Part shown: piece by piece, positions 1 through 14,469 of the stretch
Numbering within the stretch: the first letter of the stretch is position 1
Layout of the letters: each line of letters begins with the position of its first letter
IMG/VR virus record: IMGVR_UViG_3300021438_000015
Location: 1-63,666 of that record
From: a virus
Taxonomy: Duplodnaviria; Caudoviricetes
Strand: one strand, 5' to 3'
Length of the DNA stretch: 63,666 nucleotides
Translations under genes and position numbers: made by a program
Notes under the pieces: model-generated
Database searches by the model: none
Told to the model about the DNA's origin: nothing
Seen by the model: the letters and a program-made list of their open reading frames with translations, nothing else

Positions 1-628
1 AAGTGACAACGCCACGACCACGCCTAATCTCAGGGCAAACAACATACTTGGTATCGTCAATGATAACCAGTTTAGGCAGACTCTTACGCCAAGCATCGGC
101 CAGATTCTTACGCTTGGGGCGTTTCTTGGCAATCTTCTGGTCACTATCGCACCATGCGAACAGTTTGAAACCAGCCTCAACCGCAGCGGCCTTATCATTA
201 GCGTTATGGATGCTAGCATATACATTCATATACTTTTCCATAGCCACAAGGCGACCATCATAGATATGAGTATAAAACCACATATCTGGCAGTGTCGTAC
301 CTTCCGATACGATACTCTCACAAGCCCACATTACATTCTCAACATAGTTAGTATCCAACTCACCGTTGAGAAACCAATCGCCACGCTCATGCCAGCGAAT
401 AGACTTCTCTTTACGGATGGCTTCCAGAATCATAGCACGAATACGATTCTTTTCCGTAATGAGATTTTGCATACCGGCAGGACGCACGTTAGGATACATT
501 TTCTCGGTTTGCTCTGCATAGCAACCGTCACCAAGAAATGCACAAGTAGGTGGACAAGTGTCACCCACAGGGCGAGAAACCACCAAACAACCCTTGCCAA
601 GTTTATCGTTACCGTCTGCAACTTTCAT
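1..628 (-). CDS. Gp88-like phage protein (radical-SAM-like Cys motif), truncated by window edge
   Basis: Not in ORF track. Hand translation from ATG at 628 (RBS AGGGAGA) gives MKVADGNDKLGKGCLVVSRPVGDTCPPTCAFLGDGCYAE...IRWHERGDW...WFYTH...VCPE, open to base 1. The TCPxxC..CYA and RWHxxGD motifs resemble the Gp88 family. Confidence 0.75.
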   Translation of the reverse strand, partial: MKVADGNDKLGKGCLVVSRPVGDTCPPTCAFLGDGCYAEQTEKMYPNVRPAGMQNLITEKNRIRAMILEAIRKEKSIRWHERGDWFLNGELDTNYVENVMWACESIVSEGTTLPDMWFYTHIYDGRLVAMEKYMNVYASIHNANDKAAAVEAGFKLFAWCDSDQKIAKKRPKRKNLADAWRKSLPKLVIIDDTKYVVCPEIRRGRGVVT

Positions 629-651
629 AACTTTCTCCCTTGTATGCCATC

Positions 652-679
652 ATTCTACAGTCTATATCGGCATGGTCAA
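652..679 (-). promoter_or_regulatory. sigma70-type promoter with GCCGATA box
   Basis: TTGACC-N16-TAGAAT; spacer contains GCCGATA. Confidence 0.75.
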
Positions 680-701
680 GGGGAAATATTTAAAAAATCT
701 T

Positions 702-761
702 TGGCATGGTGTTCGCGGCCCGCCCCGCTGTTTCTAAATCCTTATAGAGAAAGGACTTACG
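702..761 (+). promoter_or_regulatory. sigma54-like box + GC core + 27-bp palindrome element
   Basis: TGGCATGGTGTTCGC (702-716), GGCCCGCC, then CTAA-ATCC-TT-N7-AA-GGAC-TTAC (734-760). Confidence 0.6.
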
Positions 762-775
762 AATAGAAAAGAAAA

Positions 776-849
776 CGAGAATGACGGGACTTGAACCCGC
801 AACCTCTAGCGTGACAGGCTAGCGATCTAACCAGTTGATCTACATTCCC
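776..849 (-). tRNA. trnD: tRNA-Asp(GTC)
   Basis: Cloverleaf GGGAATG...CATTCTC, anticodon arm CTAGC-CTGTCAC-GCTAG, T-loop TTCAAGT; no encoded CCA. Confidence 0.95.
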
Positions 850-851
850 AA

Positions 852-923
852 TAGCCCCACGGAGGATCGAACTCCGATCTCCACCTTGAAAGGGTGGTGT
901 ACTAGCCATTATACAATGGGGCC
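852..923 (-). tRNA. trnE: tRNA-Glu(TTC)
   Basis: GGCCCCA...TGGGGCT acceptor, anticodon arm CCACC-CTTTCAA-GGTGG, GTTCGA. Confidence 0.95.
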
Positions 924-926
924 ATA

Positions 927-1000
927 ACACACAGGGTAGGATTCGAACCTACACAGAGCAAATTAACAGTTTGCGGCACTACCATTATGCTACCTGTGTA
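927..1000 (-). tRNA. trnN: tRNA-Asn(GTT)
   Basis: Anticodon arm GCAAA-CTGTTAA-TTTGC, T arm GTAGG-TTCGAAT-CCTAC. Confidence 0.93.
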
Positions 1001-1003
1001 AAA

Positions 1004-1075
1004 ATGCCCGACTAGGATTCGAACCTAGAAACGACGGAACCAAAATCCGTTGCAGTACCATTGTGCTATCGGGCA
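1004..1075 (-). tRNA. trnQ: tRNA-Gln(TTG)
   Basis: TGCCCGA...TCGGGCA acceptor, anticodon arm ACGGA-TTTTGGT-TCCGT, TTCGAAT loop. Confidence 0.95.
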
Positions 1076-1079
1076 ATAA

Positions 1080-1152
1080 GGCCAGTGGCCGGGAACGATC
1101 CGGCGACATTTGGTTTACAAAACCAACGCTCTACCAACTGAGCTACACTGGC
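1080..1152 (-). tRNA. trnT: tRNA-Thr(TGT), atypical T-loop
   Basis: GCCAGTG...CACTGGC acceptor, AGCTCAGTTGGTAGAGC D-arm, anticodon arm TTGGT-TTTGTAA-ACCAA, T-loop ATCGTTC. Confidence 0.92.
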
Positions 1153-1185
1153 GACCACGTAACTCAAACGTCAGCCTCCAAGATC

Positions 1186-1214
1186 ATTATACACTTTTTC
1201 TAGGGTTTTGTCAA
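1186..1214 (-). promoter_or_regulatory. sigma70-type promoter of tRNA cluster
   Basis: Perfect TTGACA-N17-TATAAT; also contains GTGTATAAT late-type motif. Confidence 0.85.
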
Positions 1215-1221
1215 GCAGATT

Positions 1222-1231
1222 GTGTATAGTA
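1222..1231 (+). promoter_or_regulatory. putative late promoter GTGTATA
   Basis: GTGTATAGTA a few nt before the HNH ATG; same motif precedes the late operons. Confidence 0.5.
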
Positions 1232-1235
1232 TTAT

Positions 1236-1778
1236 ATGAAAAAGAAATGTCCACAATGCGAATTAGAACTACCATTAACGAATGAGTACTTTCATAAAGA
1301 CTCTCGTTCTATTAATGGTTTTCATTCTTCATGTAAAAAATGTCGTTTGCACAAGTCTAAACTATCAGCATCTAATTTAGAAGCTAAACAACGAAAAGCA
1401 GAATATAGAAAACAAACCAGAGATCACATTAGAGAATATAAAAGGATATGGGAGCAAAATAGAGCAAAAACACATCCAGAGTTTAGAATAAAAACATCTC
1501 TCAGGCGTCGTATACATTCAGTAGTTAAATTTGGTCATAAAGCAGACAAAACATTTACATTGTTGGGCTGTTCTTTAGAGTATTTCATTGCCTATTTAGA
1601 AAGTAAATTCCAAGATGGCATGACTTTAGATAACTATGGGCAATGGCATATAGATCATATACGCCCTTGCTCTAGTTTTGATTTAATGGATCCAGAACAA
1701 CAACGACAGTGTTTTCACTATACTAATCTTCAACCCTTATGGGCAAAAGATAATCTATTGAAAAGCGATAAGTTTTAA
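1236..1778 (+). CDS. HNH homing endonuclease with N-terminal Zn finger
   Basis: N-terminal CPQC...CKKC; C-terminal WHIDHIRPC...CFHYTNLQPLWAKDNLLK HNH motif. Confidence 0.85.
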   Translation: MKKKCPQCELELPLTNEYFHKDSRSINGFHSSCKKCRLHKSKLSASNLEAKQRKAEYRKQTRDHIREYKRIWEQNRAKTHPEFRIKTSLRRRIHSVVKFGHKADKTFTLLGCSLEYFIAYLESKFQDGMTLDNYGQWHIDHIRPCSSFDLMDPEQQRQCFHYTNLQPLWAKDNLLKSDKF

Positions 1779-1779
1779 A

Positions 1780-1941
1780 CTATTCCCCATCGCCATAAAT
1801 ATTATACCACTCCCCGCTATCATCATAATCTACAATGTCCGCATCACATTCAAGTTCTTCATATTCATCGTAATCGGGAATATATGACAGGTGTCTCATA
1901 ACATTCTCGTTGTATAGAACATGATCAATATCGCGGGACAT
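1780..1941 (-). CDS. small acidic hypothetical protein (53 aa)
   Basis: Hand translation MSRDIDHVLYNENVMRHLSYIPDYDEYEELECDADIVDYDDSGEWYNIYGDGE; RBS AAGGAG; own promoter. Confidence 0.7.
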   Translation of the reverse strand: MSRDIDHVLYNENVMRHLSYIPDYDEYEELECDADIVDYDDSGEWYNIYGDGE

Positions 1942-1978
1942 TATAATCTCCTTATGATGATGGTAGGGGCATATCTCT

Positions 1979-2007
1979 ATTATACTCTATACACGGGAGG
2001 TTATCAA
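1979..2007 (-). promoter_or_regulatory. sigma70-type promoter
   Basis: TTGATA-N17-TATAAT. Confidence 0.7.
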
Positions 2008-2079
<72 letters not shown>

Positions 2080-2137
2080 AAAATGTACGGGTTATGCCAT
2101 ACTCGGCTTTGCATTTAACCGTGGTTTCTTTGATATC

Positions 2138-2166
2138 ATTCTACCAGCGGCCCGTACAGTTGTCAA
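2138..2166 (-). promoter_or_regulatory. sigma70-type promoter of tRNA-Lys
   Basis: TTGACA-N17-TAGAAT. Confidence 0.8.
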
Positions 2167-2445
2167 CTATTCAAATAACCTCATTTGCCCATCATTCTTT
2201 ATAATAGGATTGAAATCCAGTAGTTCGTTGCCATCATCATCTTCATAGCCATAAGTCTCAGCCTCAACAATCTCGCGGATACGCTCACGATATTCCTCAT
2301 CGCTATGGTTTTCCAGCCAAGAGTCAAGCAGATCATTAGCCAGTAGATCATTCACGCATAGAATAAAGTTCTCGGGCCATGAGTTTGTATCATCACGCCA
2401 GATAGCCCTCATTTCAGACGCAGTAAAGATATCAAATATGCCCAT
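2167..2445 (-). CDS. acidic hypothetical protein
   Basis: 92-aa ORF co-oriented with neighbours, promoter directly upstream. Confidence 0.75.
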   Translation of the reverse strand: MGIFDIFTASEMRAIWRDDTNSWPENFILCVNDLLANDLLDSWLENHSDEEYRERIREIVEAETYGYEDDDGNELLDFNPIIKNDGQMRLFE

Positions 2446-2472
2446 AACCTTATCGTCCTTTCTTGTCTACAA

Positions 2473-2501
2473 AGTTTACTCTAAAATGGAAGGTCTGTCA
2501 A
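2473..2501 (-). promoter_or_regulatory. sigma70-type promoter
   Basis: TTGACA-N17-TAAACT. Confidence 0.65.
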
Positions 2502-2657
2502 GTCATTCTGTCGCTGACTATCTGCACAACATCGATCTTCATTATTTGGGAAAGACTCTCCCCCGCATTTTGCCTGCCTTTTGTATTCTTCCCATTCCTC
2601 CCAAACTACCAAGTCTGCCGTTTCCTCACAGTGTACGCACTCATCCCATTTTGACAT
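2481..2657 (-). CDS. small Cys-containing hypothetical protein
   Basis: Start moved to MSKWDECVHC (ATG 2657, RBS AAGGAG). Confidence 0.6.
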   Translation of the reverse strand: MSKWDECVHCEETADLVVWEEWEEYKRQAKCGGESFPNNEDRCCADSQRQNDLTDLPF

Positions 2658-2689
2658 GGTGTAACTCCTTATGCTGTAACGACTTCCGT

Positions 2690-2717
2690 ATGCTACCATA
2701 TTATCGGCTTTTGTCAA
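2690..2717 (-). promoter_or_regulatory. sigma70-type promoter with GCCGATA box
   Basis: TTGACA-N16-TAGCAT; GCCGATA in spacer. Confidence 0.65.
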
Positions 2718-2736
2718 GCCCCACTTTAAACTTTCT

Positions 2737-2817
2737 CTAAGTCTATATATACCAATACTTTACGACGAATCCGGCCCGCCCGCCTCGCCCTAAACCCTTA
2801 CAGTGTAAGGACTTAGA
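2737..2817. repeat. paired 27-bp palindromes with GC core
   Basis: TAA-N4-WT-N7-AA-N4-TTA at 2737 and 2790 (53 bp apart) flanking CCGGCCCGCCCGCC. Confidence 0.8.
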
Positions 2818-2840
2818 GCTAAAGGCTAGGCTAGTGTACA

Positions 2841-3245
2841 TTAAAACAGGTGAGCGACACCCATACTGTACAAAAGATTACCGGTTACTGTACGCCTGCA
2901 CATGTCACTACGCTCTGCATAAAACTGGCGATACTCACCGTTTGACATTTTGCAAGTAACAAGCGTAGGGCTACGCTGAAACTCTTTATCATATCGGCGG
3001 TAATCACTAGACCAGTTCAGACGGTCAATCTCATCCTTAGTCAACTTATAAACATTCACAACCTTGGCAAGATACCTTTGATAATCACCAGTTACAGGTT
3101 GGAAGTATCGAAAGTTATATACAGTACCAACAGTAGCATTAGCAAGACTATCATGCACACCTCTGTATACATTGAAAAAGAAAAAGCAAACCAAAGCAAC
3201 GCAAGAAAGGGCAAGCAAACCGCCAAACAAAACGAGATCATTCAT
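2841..3245 (-). CDS. hypothetical protein with N-terminal membrane anchor
   Basis: 134 aa; hydrophobic LVLFGGLLALSCVALVCFFFF; RBS AGGAG. Confidence 0.8.
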   Translation of the reverse strand: MNDLVLFGGLLALSCVALVCFFFFNVYRGVHDSLANATVGTVYNFRYFQPVTGDYQRYLAKVVNVYKLTKDEIDRLNWSSDYRRYDKEFQRSPTLVTCKMSNGEYRQFYAERSDMCRRTVTGNLLYSMGVAHLF

Positions 3246-3271
3246 TTATCAACTCCTAGTGGGAAAAACTC

Positions 3272-3300
3272 ATTATACCTTGTCGATGAGGCTTTGTCAA
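3272..3300 (-). promoter_or_regulatory. sigma70-type promoter
   Basis: Perfect TTGACA-N17-TATAAT. Confidence 0.85.
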
Positions 3301-3560
3301 GCACTCAGCACATCATCTTCTACAATATCATCGGCATCTTCCGCGAAGCAACTTGAGTTTACTTCGTCAACGTCGATACCGCTATCATTCCACGCCACAT
3401 TGTCGGGCGTTTCATATGCAATCGCTCCACCTTCATTGTAAAGGTATTCTTGAAACTCAGCATAGTTAGAGCAACTACGAGAGAGATTATAAAGCCCCTC
3501 GTCGTTACTAATCCAGAGGCACACGTTCCACGTTTCGTAGTTAGCATAACCGTTATACAT
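3297..3560 (-). CDS. conserved phage hypothetical protein (YNG.NYETWNV.LW..ND type)
   Basis: N-terminal MYNGYANYETWNVCLWISNDEGLY pattern is recurrent in phage early proteins; acidic tail. Confidence 0.8.
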   Translation of the reverse strand: MYNGYANYETWNVCLWISNDEGLYNLSRSCSNYAEFQEYLYNEGGAIAYETPDNVAWNDSGIDVDEVNSSCFAEDADDIVEDDVLSA

Positions 3561-3763
3561 CAGAAATCATCTCCGTAGGTGTCACCAAAACAACCATAAC
3601 CCTCATCAACGTCCCAGCCGATAGAGTTCATCGCACTATCATGGTCGCCATCCATGCTATCATCATAGTAATCGTCCCGATAATCATTCGGGTCAACAGT
3701 ATCATCATGGTAGTCCATGTCATAGTCCTCGTAATCGTGGGTAGGATCGGGGCAACTCATCAT
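3560..3763 (-). CDS. extremely Asp-rich small protein
   Basis: 67 aa, about one third Asp; start/stop overlap with downstream gene; RBS AAGGAG. Confidence 0.75.
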   Translation of the reverse strand: MMSCPDPTHDYEDYDMDYHDDTVDPNDYRDDYYDDSMDGDHDSAMNSIGWDVDEGYGCFGDTYGDDF

Positions 3764-3770
3764 TCACTCC

Positions 3771-3947
3771 TTAGAAAGTATACTCTTCGGGAATCCACTC
3801 GTCAACATCAACGCCAACGATTTCCGCCCAATCGTAGAAATCGCACAGCACAGCCGGATCATCAACAGGCTCGACCATCGGCTCAACCGCTTCCTTCGCG
3901 GCAAGGTCAGCAAGAATCGCGTTGACTTCTTCAAAATCGTAGAGCAT
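3771..3947 (-). CDS. small acidic hypothetical protein
   Basis: MLYDFEEVNAIL...; RBS AGGAGG appropriately spaced from ATG 3947. Confidence 0.75.
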   Translation of the reverse strand: MLYDFEEVNAILADLAAKEAVEPMVEPVDDPAVLCDFYDWAEIVGVDVDEWIPEEYTF

Positions 3948-3972
3948 TTTCATTCCTCCTAGGTATGCCATC

Positions 3973-4000
3973 ATTCTACACTAGTTATCGGCAACGTCAA
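3973..4000 (-). promoter_or_regulatory. sigma70-type promoter with GCCGATA box
   Basis: TTGACG-N16-TAGAAT; shares TGTAGAATGATGGCATAC with promoter at 652-679. Confidence 0.75.
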
Positions 4001-4045
4001 GCCCCAATCTACAAATATTTTTCCTTAAAAAGATGAAAGGGTATT

Positions 4046-4105
4046 TGGCACAAAAATCGCGGCCCGCCCCATTCGCCCTAAACCCTTGTCAGATATAGAG
4101 TTACG
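4046..4105 (+). promoter_or_regulatory. sigma54-like box + GC core + 27-bp palindrome element
   Basis: TGGCACAAAAATCGC (4046-4060), GGCCCGCC, palindrome at 4078; same 32-bp offset as the element at 702. Confidence 0.6.
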
Positions 4106-4183
4106 TCAACTATTCACAATCCAAGCCGCTATACATCCGATCACGAAAGAAAGTGAAAGCACAATCGCGTCACCTGTACGCAT
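4106..4183 (-). CDS. 25-aa single-TM peptide
   Basis: MRTGDAIVLSLSFVIGCIAAWIVNS; AAGGA RBS; below ORF-track cutoff. Confidence 0.55.
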   Translation of the reverse strand: MRTGDAIVLSLSFVIGCIAAWIVNS

Positions 4184-4185
4184 AT

Positions 4186-4287
4186 TCAGTCCTTTTTTAT
4201 TGGAAAAACAAGATCAGAAACAAACCAACAACCAATAACGCCAACAACAAATCCCACACCGATTTGTACCCAGTTAATATCGACCAT
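4186..4287 (-). CDS. 33-aa single-TM peptide
   Basis: MVDINWVQIGVGFVVGVIGCWFVSDLVFPIKKD; AAAGGGG upstream. Confidence 0.6.
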   Translation of the reverse strand: MVDINWVQIGVGFVVGVIGCWFVSDLVFPIKKD

Positions 4288-4302
4288 CCTTGGCCCCTTT
4301 CT

Positions 4303-4602
4303 TTATGAAACTAAAATGTTATCTTCAAACGGAGTACCATCCTGCAAAAACCATTCGTAGTTTTTCTGGTACACACAAACCGGACTATACTTGTTAATAC
4401 GATCCTTAGTGGTGCTAGTTCGCCATCCGTTGGTGTTCAACTTATAAAGCCCGTTAGGATAAATAACAACCACCTTCGTACCATGCAGTTCAATAGCAAC
4501 ACTACCATCGTGCTGAATGTAAGCGTAGGTATTGTTGCCAACCTTACGCTGGCTTCGGTTACGCTTGCCCAAAACCATCTTAGTCGCTTCGGCGTGAGTC
4601 AT
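4303..4602 (-). CDS. conserved phage hypothetical protein
   Basis: 99 aa with LHGT..V...L.T.GW.T.TTK.RIN pattern typical of phage early proteins. Confidence 0.8.
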   Translation of the reverse strand: MTHAEATKMVLGKRNRSQRKVGNNTYAYIQHDGSVAIELHGTKVVVIYPNGLYKLNTNGWRTSTTKDRINKYSPVCVYQKNYEWFLQDGTPFEDNILVS

Positions 4603-4615
4603 CTTTTTTCCTTAG

Positions 4616-4831
4616 TTAGAGAGCCTTGATTTGATTCAGTATATCGGCCACACCAGCAAAGTCAAGCCATCCCACAACGTCACTAGTCACGGGAGTATCA
4701 TATACAATCTTGCCATCTTTCATAACGGCAACTTCAAAAAGCCCATCTTTTCCACCATAGGTCATAGCATTACTTACAACGCTAGCCTCGTAACCATTAT
4801 CAAACTTAAAAACTTTACGGTAATCGTTCAT
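4616..4831 (-). CDS. conserved phage hypothetical protein
   Basis: MNDYRKVFKFDNGYEASVV...YGGKDGLFEVAV...YDTPVTSDVVGWL; RBS GAGGA. Confidence 0.8.
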   Translation of the reverse strand: MNDYRKVFKFDNGYEASVVSNAMTYGGKDGLFEVAVMKDGKIVYDTPVTSDVVGWLDFAGVADILNQIKAL

Positions 4832-4854
4832 GATATCCTCTTTCTTATATCGAC

Positions 4855-4882
4855 ATTCTATCATCTAAACTTTAGTTGTCAA
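4855..4882 (-). promoter_or_regulatory. sigma70-type promoter
   Basis: TTGACA-N16-TAGAAT followed by GTCGATA; CTAAAGTT in spacer. Confidence 0.75.
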
Positions 4883-4996
4883 GCGTTTTTCGTGCTGACT
4901 ACGCTGGCTACCAAATGATCCGGCCAGTTTGGCCGAGACTTCCCAGTTTTCCCAGATCGCCCAAACCCCCCATTTTGCCTATCTTACCAAAACCCC

Positions 4997-5326
4997 CTAT
5001 TCGTCGTAAAACGCGGAGATTTCCTGTCCTGCCACAGCATACATTTCATACATACTACGCAAAGCCTCTACCCTCTCGCGGCTTCCCGGCTTACCTACCT
5101 TGTCAATCATGAGGTCGTTACCCCCCACAATGCGGGGATCGACGCTTTCCTTACGCACCTTACCAGCATTACGCAAAGCGGTACGGTTGAACTTGATTAC
5201 CTTTTCGCTTTTGATTGGCCCATATTGCCCATCCGCAAGGCTAGGTTGATGGGGAATAGCGATTCCCACAAAGCACATGCGAGCCTGTCGCTTGGCATCT
5301 TCGATGATTTGAAACTTTGTAGCCAT
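4997..5326 (-). CDS. hypothetical protein
   Basis: 109-aa ORF, RBS AAGGA, own promoter. Confidence 0.8.
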   Translation of the reverse strand: MATKFQIIEDAKRQARMCFVGIAIPHQPSLADGQYGPIKSEKVIKFNRTALRNAGKVRKESVDPRIVGGNDLMIDKVGKPGSRERVEALRSMYEMYAVAGQEISAFYDE

Positions 5327-5352
5327 TTTCTTTTCCTTAGTGGTGATGATGG

Positions 5353-5381
5353 ATTGTACGAAACTTTTTCTACGCTGTCAA
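5353..5381 (-). promoter_or_regulatory. sigma70-type promoter
   Basis: TTGACA-N17-TACAAT. Confidence 0.75.
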
Positions 5382-5575
5382 GAGAGGCTAAAACCTAGTT
5401 CAATCTCTAGAGACATCTTGCAAACTTTTTCGCGTAGAGCGTGAAGCCTAGCGGCCTCTTTCCTATACGCTTCCTTTTCTTCATCATTTATAATAGGAAG
5501 GATGGTATCCATAATCCGGTTTTCCCGGTGGATAATGGCAAGGTGGATATCTTTTAGTTCGTCAACGGTTAGCAT
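5378..5575 (-). CDS. hypothetical protein
   Basis: 65-aa helical ORF, RBS AAGGA. Confidence 0.75.
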   Translation of the reverse strand: MLTVDELKDIHLAIIHRENRIMDTILPIINDEEKEAYRKEAARLHALREKVCKMSLEIELGFSLS

Positions 5576-5607
5576 TTCTTTTCCTTTTCTCTTTCTTACT
5601 TATCGGT

Positions 5608-5635
5608 ATTCTAGCGACTCAACTTTAGAAGTCAA
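5608..5635 (-). promoter_or_regulatory. sigma70-type promoter
   Basis: TTGACT-N16-TAGAAT followed by ACCGATA; CTAAAGTT in spacer. Confidence 0.75.
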
Positions 5636-5781
5636 GCATTTTCTTTTTCGTTTTTCTCTTTTTCTTCTCTACGCTTTTGCTCATAGTAGGATTCCAGAGA
5701 CTTCAAAAACTCGTCAACGTATCCATCTTCATTATCACGACGGTAATCGTATCCATCGTCAGACTTATAAAACTTACCCAT
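5632..5781 (-). CDS. small charged hypothetical protein
   Basis: MGKFYKSDDGYD...; RBS AAAGGT. Confidence 0.6.
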   Translation of the reverse strand: MGKFYKSDDGYDYRRDNEDGYVDEFLKSLESYYEQKRREEKEKNEKENA

Positions 5782-5801
5782 TTTATTTACCTTTCCTATC
5801 C

Positions 5802-5969
5802 TCAAAAAGTTTCCAGAAGATCGAAATCTTCCCAACCACTAATCTCTACCGCATCGTATACGGTTCGACCAACCAGAAAAGCCGACCCAATCGGCACAAT
5901 CTCGAAAGTCTTTCCATTTTCACCATACAACCTAACCAACTCACTCTGGATATCTTCAATGTAAACCAT
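5802..5969 (-). CDS. small hypothetical protein downstream of sigma54-type promoter
   Basis: MVYIEDIQSELVRLYG...; purine-rich leader AAGAAAGAGAGAG. Confidence 0.6.
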   Translation of the reverse strand: MVYIEDIQSELVRLYGENGKTFEIVPIGSAFLVGRTVYDAVEISGWEDFDLLETF

Positions 5970-6003
5970 TTTCAACTCTCTCTTTCTTATGTCTATATAT
6001 AGA

Positions 6004-6018
6004 GCAATCGGTGTGCCA
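6004..6018 (-). promoter_or_regulatory. sigma54 (-24/-12) promoter
   Basis: TGGCACACCGATTGC, exact TGGCAC-N5-TTGC, 35 bp upstream of ATG 5969. Confidence 0.7.
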
Positions 6019-6090
6019 AACATAGATTATTTTTTTGTGCGTTTCGACCGGGAAAAACGCTATGACATTTTTTGTGCTTAGTTTTTGAGC

Positions 6091-6169
6091 GTAGCATTTT
6101 GCAACACCCTGTAGCATTTTGCGTTAGTGATTTCGGCCATGAAACTGAGGTAGTGTAGCATTTTGCAAC
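6091..6169. repeat. three GTAGCATTTTGC(AAC) repeats, enhancer (UAS)-like
   Basis: Copies at 6091, 6111 and 6155; imperfect palindrome GTAGCA-TTT-TGCAAC. Confidence 0.75.
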
Positions 6170-6221
6170 GGTCTACCTATCTTACCATGCCTCTTTTGTA
6201 GGCGTGCGATTTTTTATTCCA

Positions 6222-6357
6222 CGGCACGGATTTTGCGTTGATACTCGCTCTAAGTCCTTATGCCACAATGGTTTACGTCAAACGCGGCCCGCCGGATTCG
6301 CCCTAAGTCCTTATGTAGCAAGGGTTTAGGTTAAATCCTAGGGCAAACGGTGTGCCA
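6222..6357. promoter_or_regulatory. dyad-symmetric element: two convergent sigma54 boxes enclosing paired palindromes
   Basis: CGGCAC-N5-TTGC (+, 6222-6236), 13 bp, palindrome 6250-6276, GC core, palindrome 6303-6329, 13 bp, TGGCAC-N5-TTGC (-, 6343-6357). Confidence 0.75.
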
Positions 6358-6365
6358 TTCAGATT

Positions 6366-6380
6366 TGGCACGATATTTGC
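6366..6380 (+). promoter_or_regulatory. sigma54 (-24/-12) box, antisense to genes
   Basis: TGGCACGATATTTGC exact consensus. Confidence 0.6.
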
Positions 6381-6557
6381 TCACCCGAAATATTGCTCTT
6401 CCCAAAAGTCCTCATCATACCCCTCTTCCTCATCTTCCCAACCTTCCCCATCGTCAAGGCCAGCAATGTAATCTGCCTCGTCTTCCATTTCTTCCCAACC
6501 CCTATAGATTTCCTCTTCGTTGATTTCCGACATATCGTAGATGAAATCGTTGTTCAT
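6381..6557 (-). CDS. extremely Glu/Asp-rich small protein
   Basis: MNNDFIYDMSEINEEE...EDEEEGYDEDFWEEQYFG; AAAGGT RBS. Confidence 0.7.
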   Translation of the reverse strand: MNNDFIYDMSEINEEEIYRGWEEMEDEADYIAGLDDGEGWEDEEEGYDEDFWEEQYFG

Positions 6558-6580
6558 TTGTATACCTTTGGGTTTAGTGT

Positions 6581-6706
6581 TCAACCGTTCATGAACCGAA
6601 TAGCATCTTGGGAAGTCTTGAACGTTCCCATCAACCTACGCTTACCGTTTTCCATTTCGCGGTAAACCTTATACTTATTCCCGATCATGATCAGAACCAG
6701 ATTCAT
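6581..6706 (-). CDS. 41-aa basic hypothetical protein
   Basis: MNLVLIMIGNKYKVYREMENGKRRLMGTFKTSQDAIRFMNG; follows promoter and purine-rich leader. Confidence 0.65.
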   Translation of the reverse strand: MNLVLIMIGNKYKVYREMENGKRRLMGTFKTSQDAIRFMNG

Positions 6707-6730
6707 AACTTTCTCTCTTTCTTTCCCTGT

Positions 6731-6759
6731 ATTATACTTATCGGCTTTTATCGTGTCAA
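6731..6759 (-). promoter_or_regulatory. sigma70-type promoter with GCCGATA box
   Basis: Perfect TTGACA-N17-TATAAT with GCCGATAAG in spacer. Confidence 0.85.
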
Positions 6760-6778
6760 GCCCCTAGGAAATATTTTT

Positions 6779-7000
6779 TCAACGAATCGTAATCAGTCCG
6801 TTGAAGTGTGAGAAGGTAAGGGTAAGAGTCTGAGAAGGATACTTCTCGTTGATATACTTCTGTGCAGTACTCTTACGGTTATCCGTAGCAGCGACACACT
6901 GTACAACTGTACCATTCTTATCCGTAACCTTCCACACCTTTTTCTGTACGATACGGGGAAGGCTACCAATGAAATCGTTGATATGAGTTGTCTTTTCCAT
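6779..7000 (-). CDS. hypothetical protein (first gene of leftward region)
   Basis: 73-aa ORF after promoter and AG-rich leader. Confidence 0.75.
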   Translation of the reverse strand: MEKTTHINDFIGSLPRIVQKKVWKVTDKNGTVVQCVAATDNRKSTAQKYINEKYPSQTLTLTFSHFNGLITIR

Positions 7001-7030
7001 TTTCTTTCTCTCTTTCTTTCTTATGCTCTT

Positions 7031-7058
7031 ATTATACCATACTTATCGGCTATGTCAA
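7031..7058 (-). promoter_or_regulatory. sigma70-type promoter with GCCGATA box
   Basis: TTGACA-N16-TATAAT with GCCGATAAG. Confidence 0.85.
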
Positions 7059-7118
7059 GGGGCAATCTCAAATATTTTTAAATATAATCTTGTGCCAAAG
7101 CAAGAAATATTCTCTAGA

Positions 7119-7133
7119 GCAAATGCTGTGCCA
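7119..7133 (-). promoter_or_regulatory. sigma54 (-24/-12) box
   Basis: TGGCACAGCATTTGC exact consensus. Confidence 0.6.
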
Positions 7134-7182
7134 AATATATTATTCTCTTAAACAGAAGATCGACACGATCATATCATTAGTC

Positions 7183-7263
7183 GTAAGTCTATACCCTATA
7201 AGGGTTTACGTCAAAAATTTCGGGGCGTATGCGTCGTAAACCTATACCCCACAAGCACTTACG
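7183..7263. repeat. paired 27-bp palindromes
   Basis: GTAA-N4-AT-N7-AA-N4-TTAC at 7183 and 7236 (53 bp apart). Confidence 0.8.
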
Positions 7264-7466
7264 TTGACTAGATGGTTGACACGATCTACTCTTTAGTAAG
7301 ATGGGGGATATAGGGGGGTTTTATCTTATAAGTATTTTAGGCAATATACGTCGAAAAAGTCGAGGGTGGTCCATCCACAATTTAGAATGTATAAACATAT
7401 GTATTACCCGATCCACCCGCATCGCCCCTGCTTGAATCATTGAATCTGTTAATTTATCAATATGGT

Positions 7467-7476
7467 GTGTATAATA
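7467..7476 (+). promoter_or_regulatory. putative late promoter
   Basis: GTGTATAATA before first rightward gene; no -35 seen. Confidence 0.65.
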
Positions 7477-7494
7477 CCATATAGGAGACATTTT

Positions 7495-7668
7495 ATGAAA
7501 AAGAAACAAACAATTGAAACGCAATTGGATTGTCGCGCTACGGCATCTTTGCAGGAACAAATAAACTCTGATTTACTTCATGAGGATAAATTACTAGCCT
7601 CGTTACTTAGCGACAAAGATACCGTTATAAACGAGGAACAGGATGACGAAACCAAGTCAAGCGATTGA
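7495..7668 (+). CDS. hypothetical protein
   Basis: MKKKQTIETQ...; RBS AGGAG. Confidence 0.65.
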   Translation: MKKKQTIETQLDCRATASLQEQINSDLLHEDKLLASLLSDKDTVINEEQDDETKSSD

Positions 7669-8422
7669 ATTAGTAGCTAATGTAGATGATAGTAACGACC
7701 TACTATTATGCGGCATTGATGGTATACAACACGCTAACTACGATTATTCAGCGGCCCATTATTATGGAACTATAAGTTCTGATAATAGTGTTAGTAACGT
7801 ATTTGGTCTTGGTGAAAATAATAAATTCTTCTATATCTTGATGTCCTTTCGTGACAATCAAATAGTTAGATACGAAGCTGGTACTGGTTATGGGTATGAA
7901 AAAGATGGTAAGCACTACTTTAATAGATACTTACCAATGTATGAGGGCAAGAACCCCCAACATCAACAACTAGTTAAAAAAAATAAAGAAAAATATATTT
8001 GTCTTGATGATGCTGTTAATGTTTTAGTTTCATCTTTCCCCCCCGACTATTCATTAATGTTTTACGATAAGAATTGCGTCTTATCTTCTTTTGATAAATC
8101 GGTTCCCCATGCGATACAAGTACTTGAAAATTCTTTCTTAGCTCGCGTTGACGTTAACGATATTTCCAACGTGTCTTTCGATAGTAAGGTTTTTAGTGAT
8201 ATTATAGCTGAAGCTTTAACGAAGTACACTAAACAGCTATCGCTTAAAGCTTCAAAACTTAGCGTTGGCAAATTGTCTGCAAAGCATTTTCAATTAGAGC
8301 CATCTAGTGATCTTAACGTTAAAAAGGGTACTTTTATATACGATGAAACAACGGATACTGTTAAGTTTTATAACGGAGAAAAATGGAGAACGTTAAAGTG
8401 GGTAGACGAAGAATCGGAATGA
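7643..8422 (+). CDS. hypothetical protein, possibly virion-associated
   Basis: 259 aa; C-terminal KGTFIYDETTDTVKFYNGEKW resembles fibre-type beta motifs. Confidence 0.75.
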   Translation: MTKPSQAIELVANVDDSNDLLLCGIDGIQHANYDYSAAHYYGTISSDNSVSNVFGLGENNKFFYILMSFRDNQIVRYEAGTGYGYEKDGKHYFNRYLPMYEGKNPQHQQLVKKNKEKYICLDDAVNVLVSSFPPDYSLMFYDKNCVLSSFDKSVPHAIQVLENSFLARVDVNDISNVSFDSKVFSDIIAEALTKYTKQLSLKASKLSVGKLSAKHFQLEPSSDLNVKKGTFIYDETTDTVKFYNGEKWRTLKWVDEESE

Positions 8423-8907
8423 AAATACCTAAAAATATGACGGAAGCACAAGTTGTGGATCAGATTAACATTGTCGTTAATAGGATATCGGCCCGTTATA
8501 CTTTTCATGGTTACGAAGTTGATGATATAAAACAAGAAGCTTTTATAATTTGTATGGATGCTATGGATCGCTATGATCCAAGTCGCCCCTTGGAGAATTT
8601 CCTGTCTGTTCACTTATCTAATCGCCTTAAAAACTTTGTTCGTGATAACTTTTATACTAAAGATGAAGAAGAAAAAAAGAAAGTTTTAAAACCTAGTAGT
8701 TTATCTTATGAAGACTTTACTCCCAGTACAGAATACAACAATGATAATAAGATAGATGCTAAAAATCTACAAGAGATTGTTGATCGCAAGTTACCTTCAG
8801 AGTTCCGCGCAGATTATCTAAAAATAATTAATAATGTATACGTACCGAAAAAAAGAAGAGAAGAAATCATTGCGATAATCAAGGAGTTACTAGATGAAGA
8901 AGGGTAG
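8419..8907 (+). CDS. phage sigma-70-family (region 2) transcription factor, probable late sigma
   Basis: YEVDDIKQEAFIICMDAMDRYDPSRPLENFLSVHLSNRLKNFVRD matches the sigma region 2 pattern; short, with truncated region 4. Confidence 0.75.
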   Translation: MKIPKNMTEAQVVDQINIVVNRISARYTFHGYEVDDIKQEAFIICMDAMDRYDPSRPLENFLSVHLSNRLKNFVRDNFYTKDEEEKKKVLKPSSLSYEDFTPSTEYNNDNKIDAKNLQEIVDRKLPSEFRADYLKIINNVYVPKKRREEIIAIIKELLDEEG

Positions 8908-9679
8908 AATTTCTAAAGAAGAAGAACGCATAATTGGCAGATTGATCGACCATGTTACGGTAGAAGATATCGCCAAGCAACTTGACCGCGATGTTGAGTC
9001 TGTTGATAACTTTGTTAAGCGTAAATTCAAGGTCGGACTATCAAACGAAGAAGCCGCCGCTTATTCACTAGAAGATCGCCCTTATTGGATTGAACTAGAG
9101 AACCAGTTTACTCCTTCAGAACTAGATCTATTTAAGTATCATTGGTCCCGTATTATTTCTCAGTTTAAAGATGACGTTTTTCCAACAGAAGAACTACAGG
9201 TGGTAGACGTTATTAAACTAGAAATACTCATGAACCGCTGCTTAAAGAGCAACAAGGACAATCTTAATGAAATGACCGTTTTGGAGAAACTCCTTAATGA
9301 CGAACGGGCCGTTGATAAGGATCAGCGTGATCATGATTATGTTTTAAATCTAGAGCGTCAGTTAGCATCCCTTCGGGCTTCTCAAGAAGCTCTTAACCGG
9401 GATTACCGCGAGCTTCAAAGTAAAAAGGCCAGCATGTTGCGTGAAATGAAGGGAACTAGAGAGCAAAGAATCAAGCGACTTGAGGATAGTAAGCAAAGCT
9501 TTACCTCTTGGGTTGCTAATCTTATGCAAGACCCAGAAACGCTAAAACGATATGGGATTGAAATGGAAAAGATGAGACTAGCTATGCTTAAGGAGAAGGA
9601 GCGATTAAGTGCTTTTCATCAATATGAGGACGGTCAGATTGATCAACCGTTCTTAACGCCAGATACGGTGCTAGACTAA
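8894..9679 (+). CDS. HTH + coiled-coil protein, candidate terminase small subunit
   Basis: N-terminal VEDIAKQLDRDVESV HTH, long coiled coil, upstream of TerL. Confidence 0.45.
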   Translation: MKKGRISKEEERIIGRLIDHVTVEDIAKQLDRDVESVDNFVKRKFKVGLSNEEAAAYSLEDRPYWIELENQFTPSELDLFKYHWSRIISQFKDDVFPTEELQVVDVIKLEILMNRCLKSNKDNLNEMTVLEKLLNDERAVDKDQRDHDYVLNLERQLASLRASQEALNRDYRELQSKKASMLREMKGTREQRIKRLEDSKQSFTSWVANLMQDPETLKRYGIEMEKMRLAMLKEKERLSAFHQYEDGQIDQPFLTPDTVLD

Positions 9680-11138: not shown

Positions 11139-11791
11139 TGAAAAAGTATAAATATAATATTGATCAATTTAATTTAATTAATATAGTTAAAAATGCATTT
11201 AATGTAGAGTCATTGAGTAATATACATTCTATTCTAGAGACAGATCTAGGAATACCAACGGATCCTAGTCAAGATCAAACTACTATCTTTCATAAAATAT
11301 TTTATAGATTGTATGAGCAAGATAACTCAGAGTTCTTAAATATTTATGACAGCTTTGTAGAATATCTAGTAAAAGAGCATTTTGATGGTCAAAATATGGT
11401 CTATCAATCTAGACCAACATTTAGGGTACAGATTCCAAACAATATAGCTGTTGCTAAGTGGCATAAAGATAAGGCATATAATCATTCGTGCAAAGAAATC
11501 AATATATATCTTCCACTAACAAATGCTTTTGATTCTAATACTATCTGGGCAGAAAGCGAAGAAGACAAGGGCGACTATTCTCCGATGAATGCTGAAGCTG
11601 GAGAGTATTATATATGGGACGGGGCTAATTTGAATCATGGTAACAAAGAAAACAAAACCGGTGTTAGTCGAGTTAGTTTAGATTTTAGATTAATTCATAA
11701 AGAAGATTTTGATTATGCTGGAACTAGTGTAACAACTAAAGTTCCCATGAAATTAGGACACTATTGGAAAGAATATAAGGAAAAAGCATGA
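11138..11791 (+). CDS. StrG-like 2OG-Fe(II) oxygenase
   Basis: YQSRPTFRV, WHKD (HxD), LNHGN...RVSLDFR jelly-roll motifs. Confidence 0.75.
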   Translation: MKKYKYNIDQFNLINIVKNAFNVESLSNIHSILETDLGIPTDPSQDQTTIFHKIFYRLYEQDNSEFLNIYDSFVEYLVKEHFDGQNMVYQSRPTFRVQIPNNIAVAKWHKDKAYNHSCKEINIYLPLTNAFDSNTIWAESEEDKGDYSPMNAEAGEYYIWDGANLNHGNKENKTGVSRVSLDFRLIHKEDFDYAGTSVTTKVPMKLGHYWKEYKEKA

Positions 11792-12876
11792 AAGCTATTA
11801 TTTTTGGAATAACTGGGCAAGATGGTAGCCATTTAGCGGATCTTCTTTTGGAAAAAGGATATGAAGTAATCGGGGTGACTCGACGTTCTAGCGTAGACAA
11901 CACCAAAAGAATAAAGCATATATTGAACCATTCTAGGTTCCATCTAGTCGAGGGGGACATAACAGATTCTAGCAGCGTTCTGAATATTTTTAGAAATAAC
12001 GAACATGTAGATGAAGTCTACAACCTCGCCGCTCAGTCTCACGTTGGAACATCCTTCACTCAGCCTTCCCTGACTTGGGATATAACGGGCAAGGGGTGCC
12101 TTAATATATTGCAGACTATGGTAGATTTAGAGATGCTTGGGAGTAGATTTTACCAAGCCTCCTCTAGTGAAATGTTTGGTAGAGCTTACGATATTGACAG
12201 AGATGGTACAAAATATCAAGATGAAAATACTAGATTTTTACCTCAATCCCCATACGCCGTTGCCAAGTGCGCCTCACATTATGCTGTTGGTTTGTATCGT
12301 CAAGCGTATGGAATTCATGGTAGCTGTGGAATACTTTTCAATCATGAAGGCCCAAGGCGTGGAGATAACTTTGTTACTAAAAAAGTGATAAATTGGGTAG
12401 TATCTTTTGTAGAATGGTTACAAGATACTAATATTATAAGCTCTGAATACATTCAATCATCAGATAATCAAATTATATATAATGATGTGACTTTCCCAAA
12501 ACTGATGCTAGGCAATTTGGATGCTTATAGAGATTGGGGATATGCTGGTGATTATGTTGAGGCAATGTGGTTAATGTTACAGCAAGACGAACCAGATGAC
12601 TATGTTATATGTACAGAGAATACATACTCTATTCGTGATTTATTAGATGCTTCTTTTGGCTATTTCGGAATTTACGATTGGAGTAATTATGTTGGAATAG
12701 ATCCTCAGTTCTATAGACCAGCAGAAGTAGATTATTTAAGAGGCAGATCTACTAAAGCAAGAGCCAAATTGGGATGGACACCAAAATACGACTTAAATGG
12801 TCTTATTAAGCTCATGATAGAAGATAAAATAAATGAAAACTTACAGAATAATGCTAGACATATCAAATGTGTTTAG
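11788..12876 (+). CDS. gmd: GDP-mannose 4,6-dehydratase
   Basis: GITGQDGSHLA, YNLAAQSHV, YQASSSEMFG, PQSPYAVAK, RDWGYAGDYV, FYRPAEVDYL. Confidence 0.97.
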   Translation: MKAIIFGITGQDGSHLADLLLEKGYEVIGVTRRSSVDNTKRIKHILNHSRFHLVEGDITDSSSVLNIFRNNEHVDEVYNLAAQSHVGTSFTQPSLTWDITGKGCLNILQTMVDLEMLGSRFYQASSSEMFGRAYDIDRDGTKYQDENTRFLPQSPYAVAKCASHYAVGLYRQAYGIHGSCGILFNHEGPRRGDNFVTKKVINWVVSFVEWLQDTNIISSEYIQSSDNQIIYNDVTFPKLMLGNLDAYRDWGYAGDYVEAMWLMLQQDEPDDYVICTENTYSIRDLLDASFGYFGIYDWSNYVGIDPQFYRPAEVDYLRGRSTKARAKLGWTPKYDLNGLIKLMIEDKINENLQNNARHIKCV

Positions 12877-13338: not shown

Positions 13339-13828
13339 AGTAGCACCGCCATTTACAGTGATAAAAGACACTAGAGAACAGGATGGTTATTTCTTTAGTG
13401 AGTTTAATACTTGCGCCGGAATGGTAGAAGAAAAGCTTGATACAGGAGATTATTCCATAAAAGGAATGGAAGACAAAATATGTATAGAGCGAAAAGGGTG
13501 CGTAGAAGAGTTGGCTGTTAATTTAGGACAAAAGAAACATGCTTTTCTAGCTGAAATAGAAAGAATGACTCCGTTTCCCCATAAATTTATTGTTTTAGAA
13601 TTCTCATTAGAAGATCTAATAAAATTTCCAGATGAAACAAGAATACCAGTTAAGAACAAAGCTTCTTTAAAAATTACTGGTAAATATATGTTAAAATGTC
13701 TATTTGAATTTCAACTTTATAATAATGTACAAATATTATTTTGTGGTAATAAATATAATGCTTTCCTTGCAGTTAGTAGTATCTTAAAAAGAGTAAATGA
13801 AATGTATACAATAGGGAGGAAAAAATGA
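13328..13828 (+). CDS. ERCC4/XPF-family nuclease
   Basis: DTREQ, LDTGDYS, CIERK motifs. Confidence 0.85.
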   Translation: MTYKVAPPFTVIKDTREQDGYFFSEFNTCAGMVEEKLDTGDYSIKGMEDKICIERKGCVEELAVNLGQKKHAFLAEIERMTPFPHKFIVLEFSLEDLIKFPDETRIPVKNKASLKITGKYMLKCLFEFQLYNNVQILFCGNKYNAFLAVSSILKRVNEMYTIGRKK

Positions 13829-14469
13829 TGGCTGAACCAGAACTATTGAAAGATTTTCATGACTACGGAGCTAATATTGCCACAAGGGAAATATTTCTTC
13901 ATAATCATTATCATGCTGAAGATAATCAGAATCCCGGTGTAGAGTATAGAATGTCTAATACCTTTATTAAAAACTTAAGGGCATTAGATATGAGGAGCAA
14001 TGCTAACATTACGATACATTGCCACAGCATAGGCGGTGAGTGGACAGATGGTATGGCTATTTATGATGCCATACAAATGTGTAGGTCATATGTTACAATC
14101 ATTATTTATGGTCAGGCTGAGTCAATGAGCAGTATTTTTATGCAAGCGGCTGATTATCGATATATGACACCAAATTCTCATTTTATGTCTCATTACGGCT
14201 CTAGTGATATAAATACTGATTATCTTAGTGCTATGAATCAAGCCGATTACGAAAGAAGAACTGCTGACACTATGTTTAATATTTATGCTGGAAGGTGTGT
14301 AGAAGGAAAATTCTTTTACGAAAAATTTGGTAAGAAACCAAGCGTTAAACAGGTTCGTCAATACCTAATTAGGAAACTAAAATCTGGAGATTGGTATCTT
14401 AGCGCAGAAGAAGCTGTGTATTATGGTTTTGCTGATTCTATACTACGAAACTGGCATTTCACAGAATGA
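13825..14469 (+). CDS. clpP: ClpP-like serine protease
   Basis: HSIGGEWTDGMAIYDAI, GQAESMSS (catalytic Ser), FMSH, DWYLSAEEAVYYGFAD. Confidence 0.85.
   Translation: MMAEPELLKDFHDYGANIATREIFLHNHYHAEDNQNPGVEYRMSNTFIKNLRALDMRSNANITIHCHSIGGEWTDGMAIYDAIQMCRSYVTIIIYGQAESMSSIFMQAADYRYMTPNSHFMSHYGSSDINTDYLSAMNQADYERRTADTMFNIYAGRCVEGKFFYEKFGKKPSVKQVRQYLIRKLKSGDWYLSAEEAVYYGFADSILRNWHFTE

Follow-up and report, generated by a model that had tools for sequence, protein, structure and literature searches.

An element at positions 6222 to 6380 of a 63,666-bp fragment of an uncultured phage (referred to here as the window, i.e., the whole stretch of DNA that was analyzed, about 40% complete by its record's own estimate) combines promoter boxes of the sigma-54 type with a pair of 27-bp palindromes in a dyad-symmetric layout. 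Judged from its sequence, the element is two predicted promoter-plus-operator units placed head to head. We give a probability of about one-half to the proposal that it is a control node at the borders of early-gene cassettes, at which host sigma-54 boxes, a palindrome-bound protein, and a host activator would act together. The layout described in an initial annotation of this DNA was recovered with all its parts, both by reading the sequence and by pattern location, and the symmetry of its motif positions is exact over the 136 bp from 6222 to 6357 (Table 1). With transcription starts placed 12 nt past the GC of each box, boxes 2 and 3 stand face to face, with predicted starts at about 6248 and 6331, respectively, which are 83 bp apart; each start lies 2 bp ahead of the adjacent palindrome. 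Box 4 stands back to back with box 3. It directly adjoins the stop codon of the gene at 6381 to 6557, into which it points antisense, and the palindrome centers lie at -76 and -129 relative to its predicted start.

The same annotation had counted seven boxes in 7 kb, which is correct if mismatches are allowed: the boxes start at 702 (+), 4046 (+), 6004 (-), 6222 (+), 6343 (-), 6366 (+), and 7119 (-), with two mismatches in the first, one each in those at 4046 and 6222, and none in the other four. Its remark that four boxes run antisense held as well, the four plus-strand boxes opposing early genes on the minus strand. Beyond that account, we found three activator-type dyads (6091 to 6169), two further palindrome pairs (7183 to 7262 and 2737 to 2816), and the half modules at 702 and 4046.

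Table 1. Boxes, palindromes, dyads, and adjoining small genes in the early region of the window
Feature	Position	Strand	Remarks
Half module: box (2 mismatches), GGCCCGCCCC core, palindrome 735-759	702..759	+	Beside tRNA cluster
Palindrome pair, 2738-2762 (degenerate) and 2791-2815 (exact)	2737..2816		Just upstream of leftward sigma-70-type promoter 2717-2690
Half module: box (1 mismatch), GGCCCGCCCC core, palindrome 4079-4103	4046..4103	+	Antisense to genes
Small early gene, 55 aa	5802..5969	-	First downstream of sense box 6004-6018 (ORF list, cassette layout)
Box 1, exact -24/-12 box, TGGCACACCGATTGC	6004..6018	-	Predicted start ~5992
Short inverted repeat GCGTTT...AAACGC beside A/T tract	6039..6060		Between activator-type sites and box 1
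Activator-type dyad 1, GTAGCATTTTGCAAC	6091..6105		Center -106 from predicted start of box 1, -150 from that of box 2
Activator-type dyad 2, GTAGCATTTTGCGTT, imperfect	6111..6125		Center -126 from box 1, -130 from box 2
Activator-type dyad 3, GTAGCATTTTGCAAC	6155..6169		Center -170 from box 1, -86 from box 2
Box 2, CGGCACGGATTTTGC	6222..6236	+	One mismatch (CGGCAC) to TGGCAC-N5-TTGC; faces palindromes, antisense to early genes
Gap, 13 bp	6237..6249		Between box 2 and P1
Palindrome 1 (P1), C-TAAGTCCTT-N7-AATGGTTTA-C	6250..6276		27 bp
GC-rich core, motif GGCCCGCC	6277..6302		26 bp; weak dyad symmetry
Palindrome 2 (P3), C-TAAGTCCTT-N7-AAGGGTTTA-G	6303..6329		27 bp; starts 53 bp after P1 start
Gap, 13 bp	6330..6342		Between P3 and box 3
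Box 3, exact	6343..6357	-	Faces palindromes, sense direction of early genes
Box 4, exact	6366..6380	+	8 bp beyond box 3, back to back
Small acidic early gene, 58 aa	6381..6557	-	Conserved with in-frame differences in locus L002
Box 5, exact	7119..7133	-	Sense; upstream of sigma-70-type promoter 7058-7031 and gene 6779-7000
Second palindrome pair, 7183-7209 and 7236-7262	7183..7262		Starts 53 bp apart

Sigma-54-type boxes and activator-type dyads

Counting the exact pattern TGGCAC-N5-TTGC against expectation, a check that the initial annotation had proposed, gave five matches in the window versus 0.08 expected, a number that none of 100 shuffles reached; with up to one mismatch, 12 matches compare with 2.03 expected. 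Four exact and three near-exact boxes lie in the stretch from 1 to 7.2 kb of the window. An exact box at 28564 (+) is treated as unrelated, since it sits within an open reading frame (ORF) and since all exact boxes of the complete relative G002 (166.6 kb) are located in the early region, seven of seven within 2.9 kb of the syntenic stretch. Boxes are present, too, in the three relatives retrieved via a neighboring protein. The ten large records examined (122-238 kb) contain 42 exact boxes, of which 41 were found in or beside the single palindrome region of the respective genome, with 1 to 12 boxes per genome in the nine records that had any; the reversed pattern, used as a control, had no match in the ten.

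The published sigma-54 consensus is YTGGCACG-N4-TTGCW (available text of PMC3352281). The boxes carry GG and GC ten bases apart within this consensus, and the agreement extends to positions that the search pattern left unconstrained. Specifically, in 215 distinct boxes from all fetched loci (a pattern scan of a viral collection gave more than 120 stretches), the two positions before the box are T in 61% each, A or G follows TGGCAC in 85%, T precedes TTGC in 63%, and T or A follows it in 72%. Reading the boxes as sigma-70 promoters, with TTGGCA as the -35 element, was rejected, as spacing and -10 region are poor compared with the phage's own consensus promoters.

Boxes 1 and 2 also have candidate activator sites at the expected distance of about 80 to 200 bp upstream, namely the three dyads located between them at 6091 to 6169, where GTAGCATTTTGC occurs as three direct repeats. 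Upstream of boxes 4 and 5 there are only palindromes, those of the second pair being centered at -89 and -142 from the predicted start of box 5. In the fetched loci, two or three dyads of the form GCA-WWW-TGC recur at most 190 nt upstream of a box in 31 distinct box contexts; their centers cluster at -106, -126, and -170, their consensus is GTAGCA-N3-TGCTAC, and their layout is that of NtrC-family sites. In most of these contexts an A-tract or inverted repeat separates the dyads from the box, and between box and ATG (ATTATATAG...CATAAGAAAGAGAGA) there are about 25 nt and then a purine-rich ribosome site. Box 1 is followed by a leader of about 23 nt with a purine-rich ribosome site and the ATG at 5969, which opens a gene for which the promoter scan gave no sigma-70-type promoter of its own; box 1 and the three dyads together are a predicted complete enhancer-type sigma-54 promoter beside the element. 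The dyads lie between boxes 1 and 2, which diverge, so that a single enhancer can act on both.

In classical sigma-54 promoters, a DNA-bending site occupies the stretch between the activator sites and the box. In the window this place is taken by the short inverted repeat at 6039 to 6060, and in some relatives by a palindrome of the P type. At 12 of 13 positions the dyad agrees with the Vibrio cholerae qrr3 LuxO site, and it mostly reads TAGCA-N3-TGC(A/T)A. Sites fitting TTGCA-N3-TGCAA in a Vibrionaceae host, as in qrr-type promoters, are not what is seen here; although the dyad would work like such an enhancer, its consensus differs and the habitat is freshwater, for which reasons we do not call it a LuxO site.

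Palindromes and their register with the boxes

A loose palindrome pattern matched the window five times versus 0.59 expected. In 1.12 Mb of fetched loci plus the window, TAA-N4-TT-N7-AA-N4-TTA occurs 427 times, compared with merely 4 to 13 matches for the same pattern with a spacer of 5, 6, 8, or 9. Among the paired palindromes, 98 pairs have starts separated by 53 bp, while a distance of 52 bp is seen in 12 pairs and one of 54 bp in 3; the arms extend outward to TTGAC(G/C). The ten large records hold a total of 72 paired units, 4 to 13 each, gathered in one stretch of about 6-22 kb per record, which in G005 spans the record ends. The invariant palindrome positions are sequence-specific and constant across very divergent phages.

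Perfect symmetry at the variable arm positions was found in 4 of 381 distinct sites versus 42.9 ± 5.6 expected, and G.T pairs occur without strand preference (11 versus 19). In the gapless alignment of 122 units, the arms show 0 to 6 compensatory double changes per pair, with 24-49% of the cells unpaired. The initial annotation had maintained that the element is not a simple hairpin, and folding bears this out: the predicted RNA folds of both strands have z values of -1.25, -0.12, +0.23, and -1.13 relative to shuffles, and the arms carry mismatches. The marks of a structured RNA are not seen, as compensatory pairs are scarce in the arms and the fold is no better than shuffled, the core alone showing some covariation; such an RNA was rejected as a candidate for arm asymmetry, scarce compensatory change, and shuffle-level folding. 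A search of Rfam with window positions 1 to 9000 (E up to 1) returned just tRNAs and a sub-threshold plastid match on a tRNA. Taken together, the fixed spacer, the asymmetry, the scarcity of compensatory change, and folding no better than that of shuffles suggest that the palindromes are predicted sites of a sequence-specific protein on one face of the DNA, not RNA or cruciform. An integration host factor (IHF) consensus inside the palindrome matches in a single copy only, as the N7 spacer is not conserved, and a reading as IHF sites was dropped.

As to the core, columns 39 to 56 of the 122-unit alignment keep a GGCCCGCC-type center. Its C-rich strand opposes the genes in 18 of the 21 cases that could be called, and its orientation relative to the box follows no rule (15 versus 12). 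In bacterial genome collections, hits of the paired pattern were limited to 18 stretches, each of them from a metagenome bin and probably on a phage contig; the taxa of the bins are discordant, and five of the bins showed no enrichment of the activator dyad.

The coupling between boxes and palindromes was assessed on 832 distinct palindrome sides, with boxes of up to one mismatch and the gap measured to the TAA of the palindrome. Boxes facing the palindrome form two peaks, one of 31 cases at 14-15 bp and one of 25 cases at 67-68 bp, the larger gap exceeding the smaller by the 53 bp between paired starts. For boxes pointing the other way, the preferred gaps are 25-26 and 36-37 bp, a difference of about 11 bp or one helical turn. 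The initial annotation had named spacing conservation in relatives as a test, and the gap length is indeed kept in divergent relatives although the gap sequence differs widely among loci. A box with at most one mismatch lies within 100 bp in 49 of the 138 units with full flanks, an exact one in 35. The window and loci L001 and L002 have the complete symmetric arrangement, in which either side carries a box.

With the gene strand called by a ribosome-site proxy, palindrome-facing boxes are antisense in 15 cases and sense in 4, another 28 not being callable, whereas of the boxes that have activator dyads but no palindrome next to them, 21 are sense and 4 antisense. The record of locus L057 contains twelve exact boxes, each beside a palindrome unit, and its seven units with palindrome-facing boxes all oppose the genes. 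The conserved outer arm TTGAC(G/C) begins about 6-7 bp past an inward-facing box; given a start 12 nt after the GC, a palindrome-bound protein would therefore cover about -5 to +35 of the promoter.

Possible function and alternative explanations

According to the control-node proposal, the TGGCAC-N5-TTGC boxes would be promoters, or at least docking sites, for the host sigma-54 RNA polymerase. The 27-bp palindromes would dock a sequence-specific, probably phage-encoded protein, which may sit as paired dimers on one DNA face, the distance of 53 bp between starts corresponding to five helical turns. Through the coverage deduced above, the palindrome could act as the operator of the inward-facing promoter, so that with occupied palindromes the face-to-face promoters at boxes 2 and 3 would be unable to open or clear. 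The same palindromes are located at an enhancer-like distance from the outward boxes 4 and 5 and could set the DNA geometry there. A host activator of the NtrC family, bound to the three GTAGCA-N3-TGCTAC dyads, would supply the ATPase and open boxes 1 and 2. The net effect would be to tie a subset of the early genes, as well as antisense transcription into the upstream cassette, to the signaling state of the host, with the phage protein deciding the direction of firing.

Neither a sigma-54 factor nor an activator ATPase was found to be encoded in the 34 records examined (4 + 30), and this absence implies host factors. Five weak ATPase matches were obtained in the 30 records, and the two examined are RuvB: L142 309-1214 (G028) and L143 324-1241 (G035) are full RuvB-like helicases (RuvB_N, E = 2e-47) of larger relatives with genomes of 200-230 kb. 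The initial annotation had envisaged a higher-order nucleoprotein assembly on the sigma-54 boxes. This general idea fits our results, and of the options it listed a convergent-promoter/operator switch fits best; the 4 to 13 occurrences of the unit per genome, at cassette borders, are at odds with an origin or ejection signal.

Several observations weigh against the control node. Most palindrome units (89 of 138) have no box with at most one mismatch within 100 bp, so that the palindrome must have a function independent of boxes, and the constancy of the spacing may in part have been inherited from a common ancestor of the unit, which recombination then spread. The core shows partial dyad covariation, with double changes in seven of seven pairs and 61% of the cells paired, which a pure protein-site model does not explain. 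We infer from geometry alone whether the palindrome would repress or activate. Two weak lineage hints, a Kyanoviridae Gp96 domain and a terminase 25% identical to that of a Microcystis phage, point towards cyanobacteria, which are not known to have sigma-54. The sequencing runs containing the stretch include none recorded as RNA, 5 records yielded no HU/IHF-type protein, and among the candidates considered no palindrome-binding protein was found. In particular, the protein encoded at 8894 to 9679, the most conserved neighboring protein, was rejected as palindrome binder or regulator, as its structural model (pLDDT 82.6) is closest, though weakly, to the small terminase of HK97 (E = 0.088).

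Of the other candidates, the protein at 7643 to 8422 was discarded, having no family match and no DNA-binding look. The protein at 8383 to 8907 (174 aa) contains sigma-70 region 2 only, and the N-terminus of the next one, 8894 to 9679 (261 aa), is helix-turn-helix-like. This pair could be a small terminase far from the large one (14466), or else a two-part sigma factor.

The main rival explanation, which we regard as unlikely although it is the most serious one, is a boundary/insulator or a sink. Idle sigma-54 polymerase and the palindrome-bound protein would plug the 3' end of a cassette, with the boxes docking polymerase and not promoting transcription; the plug would stop or dampen read-through from upstream early promoters or soak up host sigma-54 polymerase. 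The unit does lie in a terminator-like position, past a stop codon and ahead of the next promoter, and a scan of the window gave cassette ends without canonical terminators. The antisense bias of palindrome-facing boxes, which includes all seven such units of L057, would also suit a boundary, as would the many inward boxes without upstream activator-type dyads (none were found for L057, L072, L020, and L047), and the available text of PMC4591121 describes sigma-54 holoenzyme as sitting inactive on DNA. The same text, however, argues against a roadblock by RNA polymerase (RNAP):sigma-54, one of the functions listed in the initial annotation: in Escherichia coli, genes overlapped by intragenic RNAP:sigma-54 were unaffected, which for the authors effectively ruled out roadblocking under their conditions (PMC4591121). 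Moreover, box 2 has three activator dyads at -86 to -150, like a real promoter, the sense boxes display full promoter-to-gene geometry, and a sink would not need a fixed palindrome spacing. We see less chance still that the modules are mainly recombination substrates for a shuffling of early genes, the fixed layout being inherited with the unit. This explanation would resemble the promoter-early stem-loop (PeSL) cassettes of T4-type phages, whose regulatory repeats bring about shuffling of this kind (available text of PMC2839356). Border repeats and rearrangement do go together here: the module at 5967 to 6381 is present twice in L002 (84% and 74% identity) and once in full and once in part in L001, the order of the flanking small genes differs among the window, L002, L001, and L076, and the genes behind the same sigma-54 cassette vary by locus. 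Yet sequence identity would suffice for recombination, which requires neither the conserved 53-bp phasing nor a conserved gap length with diverged gap sequence; perfect symmetry is avoided, specific positions stay invariant across very divergent phages, and recombination accounts for the spread of the unit, not for its retention. The recombination synapse named in the initial annotation has the coincidence of repeated modules with cassette rearrangements in its favor and no direct support; a PeSL-like shuffling role agrees with the data and probably exists in addition to the control node.

It is comparably doubtful that the boxes are read by a phage factor, for example the sigma-70-family protein at 8383 to 8907, or by another DNA-binding protein sharing the motif. 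The phage does encode this sigma-70 region 2 protein, which together with its neighbor at 8894 to 9679 makes up the set of families met most frequently around the palindromes (26 of 125 loci, the window and 124 fetched ones). The weak lineage hints also point to hosts that may lack sigma-54. On the other hand, GG and GC ten bases apart do not fit the established -35/-10 geometry of the sigma-70 family, the match to the sigma-54 consensus includes the unconstrained positions, the boxes are confined to the early region instead of preceding middle or late genes as phage-sigma targets would, and NtrC-type dyads occur at the classical enhancer distance. Very improbable, finally, is a small structured RNA transcribed from box 2 or 3, or a DNA cruciform, in which the two palindromes and the core would form three hairpins. 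Predicted starts just ahead of the palindromes, plus-strand arms that in the window can pair via G.U, back-to-back boxes (6351 to 6372) that score as a terminator-like hairpin, and the double changes in all core pairs tested would agree with it. It conflicts with the folding energies, which on both strands are no different from those of shuffles, with the rarity of perfectly pairing sites and the lack of strand bias among G.U pairs, with arms nearly devoid of compensatory change, and with the restriction of Rfam matches (E up to 1) to tRNAs over positions 1 to 9000.

Genomic surroundings and implications

The second palindrome pair (7183 to 7262) is located at the point of divergence between the leftward early genes and the rightward operon starting at 7495. 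It is flanked by direct repeats at 7154 to 7181 and 7270 to 7297 (AGAAGATCGACACGATCATATCATTAGT and AGATGGTTGACACGATCTACTCTTTAGT); the right-hand repeat contains TTGACA and may be the rightward promoter of the operon, and relatives retain a GATCATATGATTAG palindrome at the position of 7154 to 7297. The half module at 4046 to 4103 is divergent from a sigma-70-type promoter at 4000 to 3973, and the palindrome of the other half module directly adjoins the tRNA cluster. No box accompanies the pair at 2737 to 2816. Downstream of it, a near-palindrome of the same family (2662 to 2686, one mismatch) follows the -10 of the promoter 2717-2690 and precedes the start codon at 2657; for a sigma-70 promoter this is an operator-like position. 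Separate consensus sigma-70-type promoters are also found close to the element itself.

The window encodes a large terminase (14466), a capsid-like protein, and tail fiber proteins. Small early-type genes form a leftward block at about 2.1-7.0 kb, many of them preceded in the promoter scan by sigma-70-type consensus promoters (TTGACA-16/17-TATAAT). The rightward block from 7495 includes the sigma-70 region 2 protein, a methyltransferase, GDP-mannose dehydratase, an ERCC4 nuclease, and ClpP; the host-like auxiliary genes for GDP-mannose 4,6-dehydratase and the ClpP-type protease are located at 11788 to 12876 and 13825 to 14469. Six tRNA genes (Asp, Glu, Asn, Gln, Thr, and Lys) lie on the minus strand within the early region, at 775 to 1152 and 2007 to 2080. 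The small early proteins at 3560 to 3763, 3771 to 3974, and 6381 to 6557 are very acidic (pI about 4.1 for the first two), a composition shared with DNA-mimic anti-restriction proteins; a family search with the protein at 6381 to 6557 gave no match. Two giant ORFs end the window, one of 2284 aa (49489 to 56343) with a tape-measure-like N-terminus and one of more than 2442 aa (56340 to 63665) that continues past the window end.

A close isolate phage was not found with the DNA of window positions 5000 to 9000, the terminase, the capsid protein, or the protein at 8894 to 9679: no similar isolate phage DNA was matched by the 5000-to-9000 stretch, the protein at 8894 to 9679 had no match in isolate phages, and the best isolate identities were 25% for the terminase, in the Microcystis phage, and 23.5% for the capsid protein, to Bacillus phage G. 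The sequencing runs in which the stretch occurs, all DNA, are labeled freshwater, aquatic, or pond metagenome.

Bacterial sigma-54 promoters with NtrC-family sites, such as those of Vibrio qrr with LuxO sites TTGCA-N3-TGCAA, are among the closest known systems, sharing a -24/-12 box that fits YTGGCACG-N4-TTGCW (available texts of PMC3352281 and PMC10328515). Also in common with qrr-type promoters are several dyads with a 3-bp center 86-170 bp upstream, an intervening A-tract or inverted repeat, and one enhancer between two divergent boxes. The element differs in that its carrier encodes neither sigma-54 nor the activator, stems from freshwater metagenomes, and has the dyad GTAGCA-N3-TGCTAC in place of the LuxO consensus, and in that its boxes, often antisense, are fused at a fixed distance to a phage-specific double palindrome. 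We know of no bacterial counterpart for boxes fused to a double palindrome.

Use of host sigma-54 by a phage is already on record for YuA (available text of PMC10914365); like YuA, the phage studied here would rely on host sigma-54 polymerase for part of its transcription. Unlike in YuA, the boxes are placed in the early region and coupled to a conserved palindrome and to activator-type dyads. The YuA promoters of this type reportedly serve the particle and lysis region, according to a 2008 study. The element shares with PeSLs that small repeated regulatory cassettes border small nonessential early genes and are tied to cassette rearrangement; while a PeSL consists of a sigma-70-like promoter and a stem-loop terminator, the element has a sigma-54-type box and a double protein-type palindrome with no significant stem-loop or other hairpin signal. 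The pR/pL pair of coliphage 186 is a face-to-face promoter switch. As in that switch, facing promoters less than 100 bp apart enclose operator-like sites, but in the element both promoters are of the sigma-54 type and would need an ATPase activator, and the layout recurs at many cassette borders instead of forming one lysis-lysogeny switch. In the literature we found no account of phage early regions in which a phased double palindrome is fused to sigma-54 boxes, supplementary files being outside the search.

A sigma-54 promoter does not fire before an ATPase activator opens it, and this activator is usually the end point of a signaling pathway. A phage with such promoters in its early region and no activator of its own would therefore have to read a host signal at the very start of infection. 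The element looks like a host-dependent control node of a kind hardly described in phages, and host-state sensing becomes a testable question for abundant uncultured lake phages of a lineage with genomes of about 120-240 kb. The double palindrome is a sharply defined DNA handle present in many phage contigs, which could be used to fish out the regulator. The fixed register of box and palindrome would show how sigma-54 polymerase is controlled in nature from a site just downstream of its promoter, an arrangement that synthetic biology could reuse as an orthogonal switch. More tentatively, a large group of uncultured phages may have turned the host sigma-54 polymerase into a programmable device at every early-cassette border, gated by a phage protein and triggered by a host protein of the NtrC type. 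If so, host physiology would decide between sense and antisense transcription across each border, and both this class of promoter-operator unit in phages and this route to the reading of host signals would be new.

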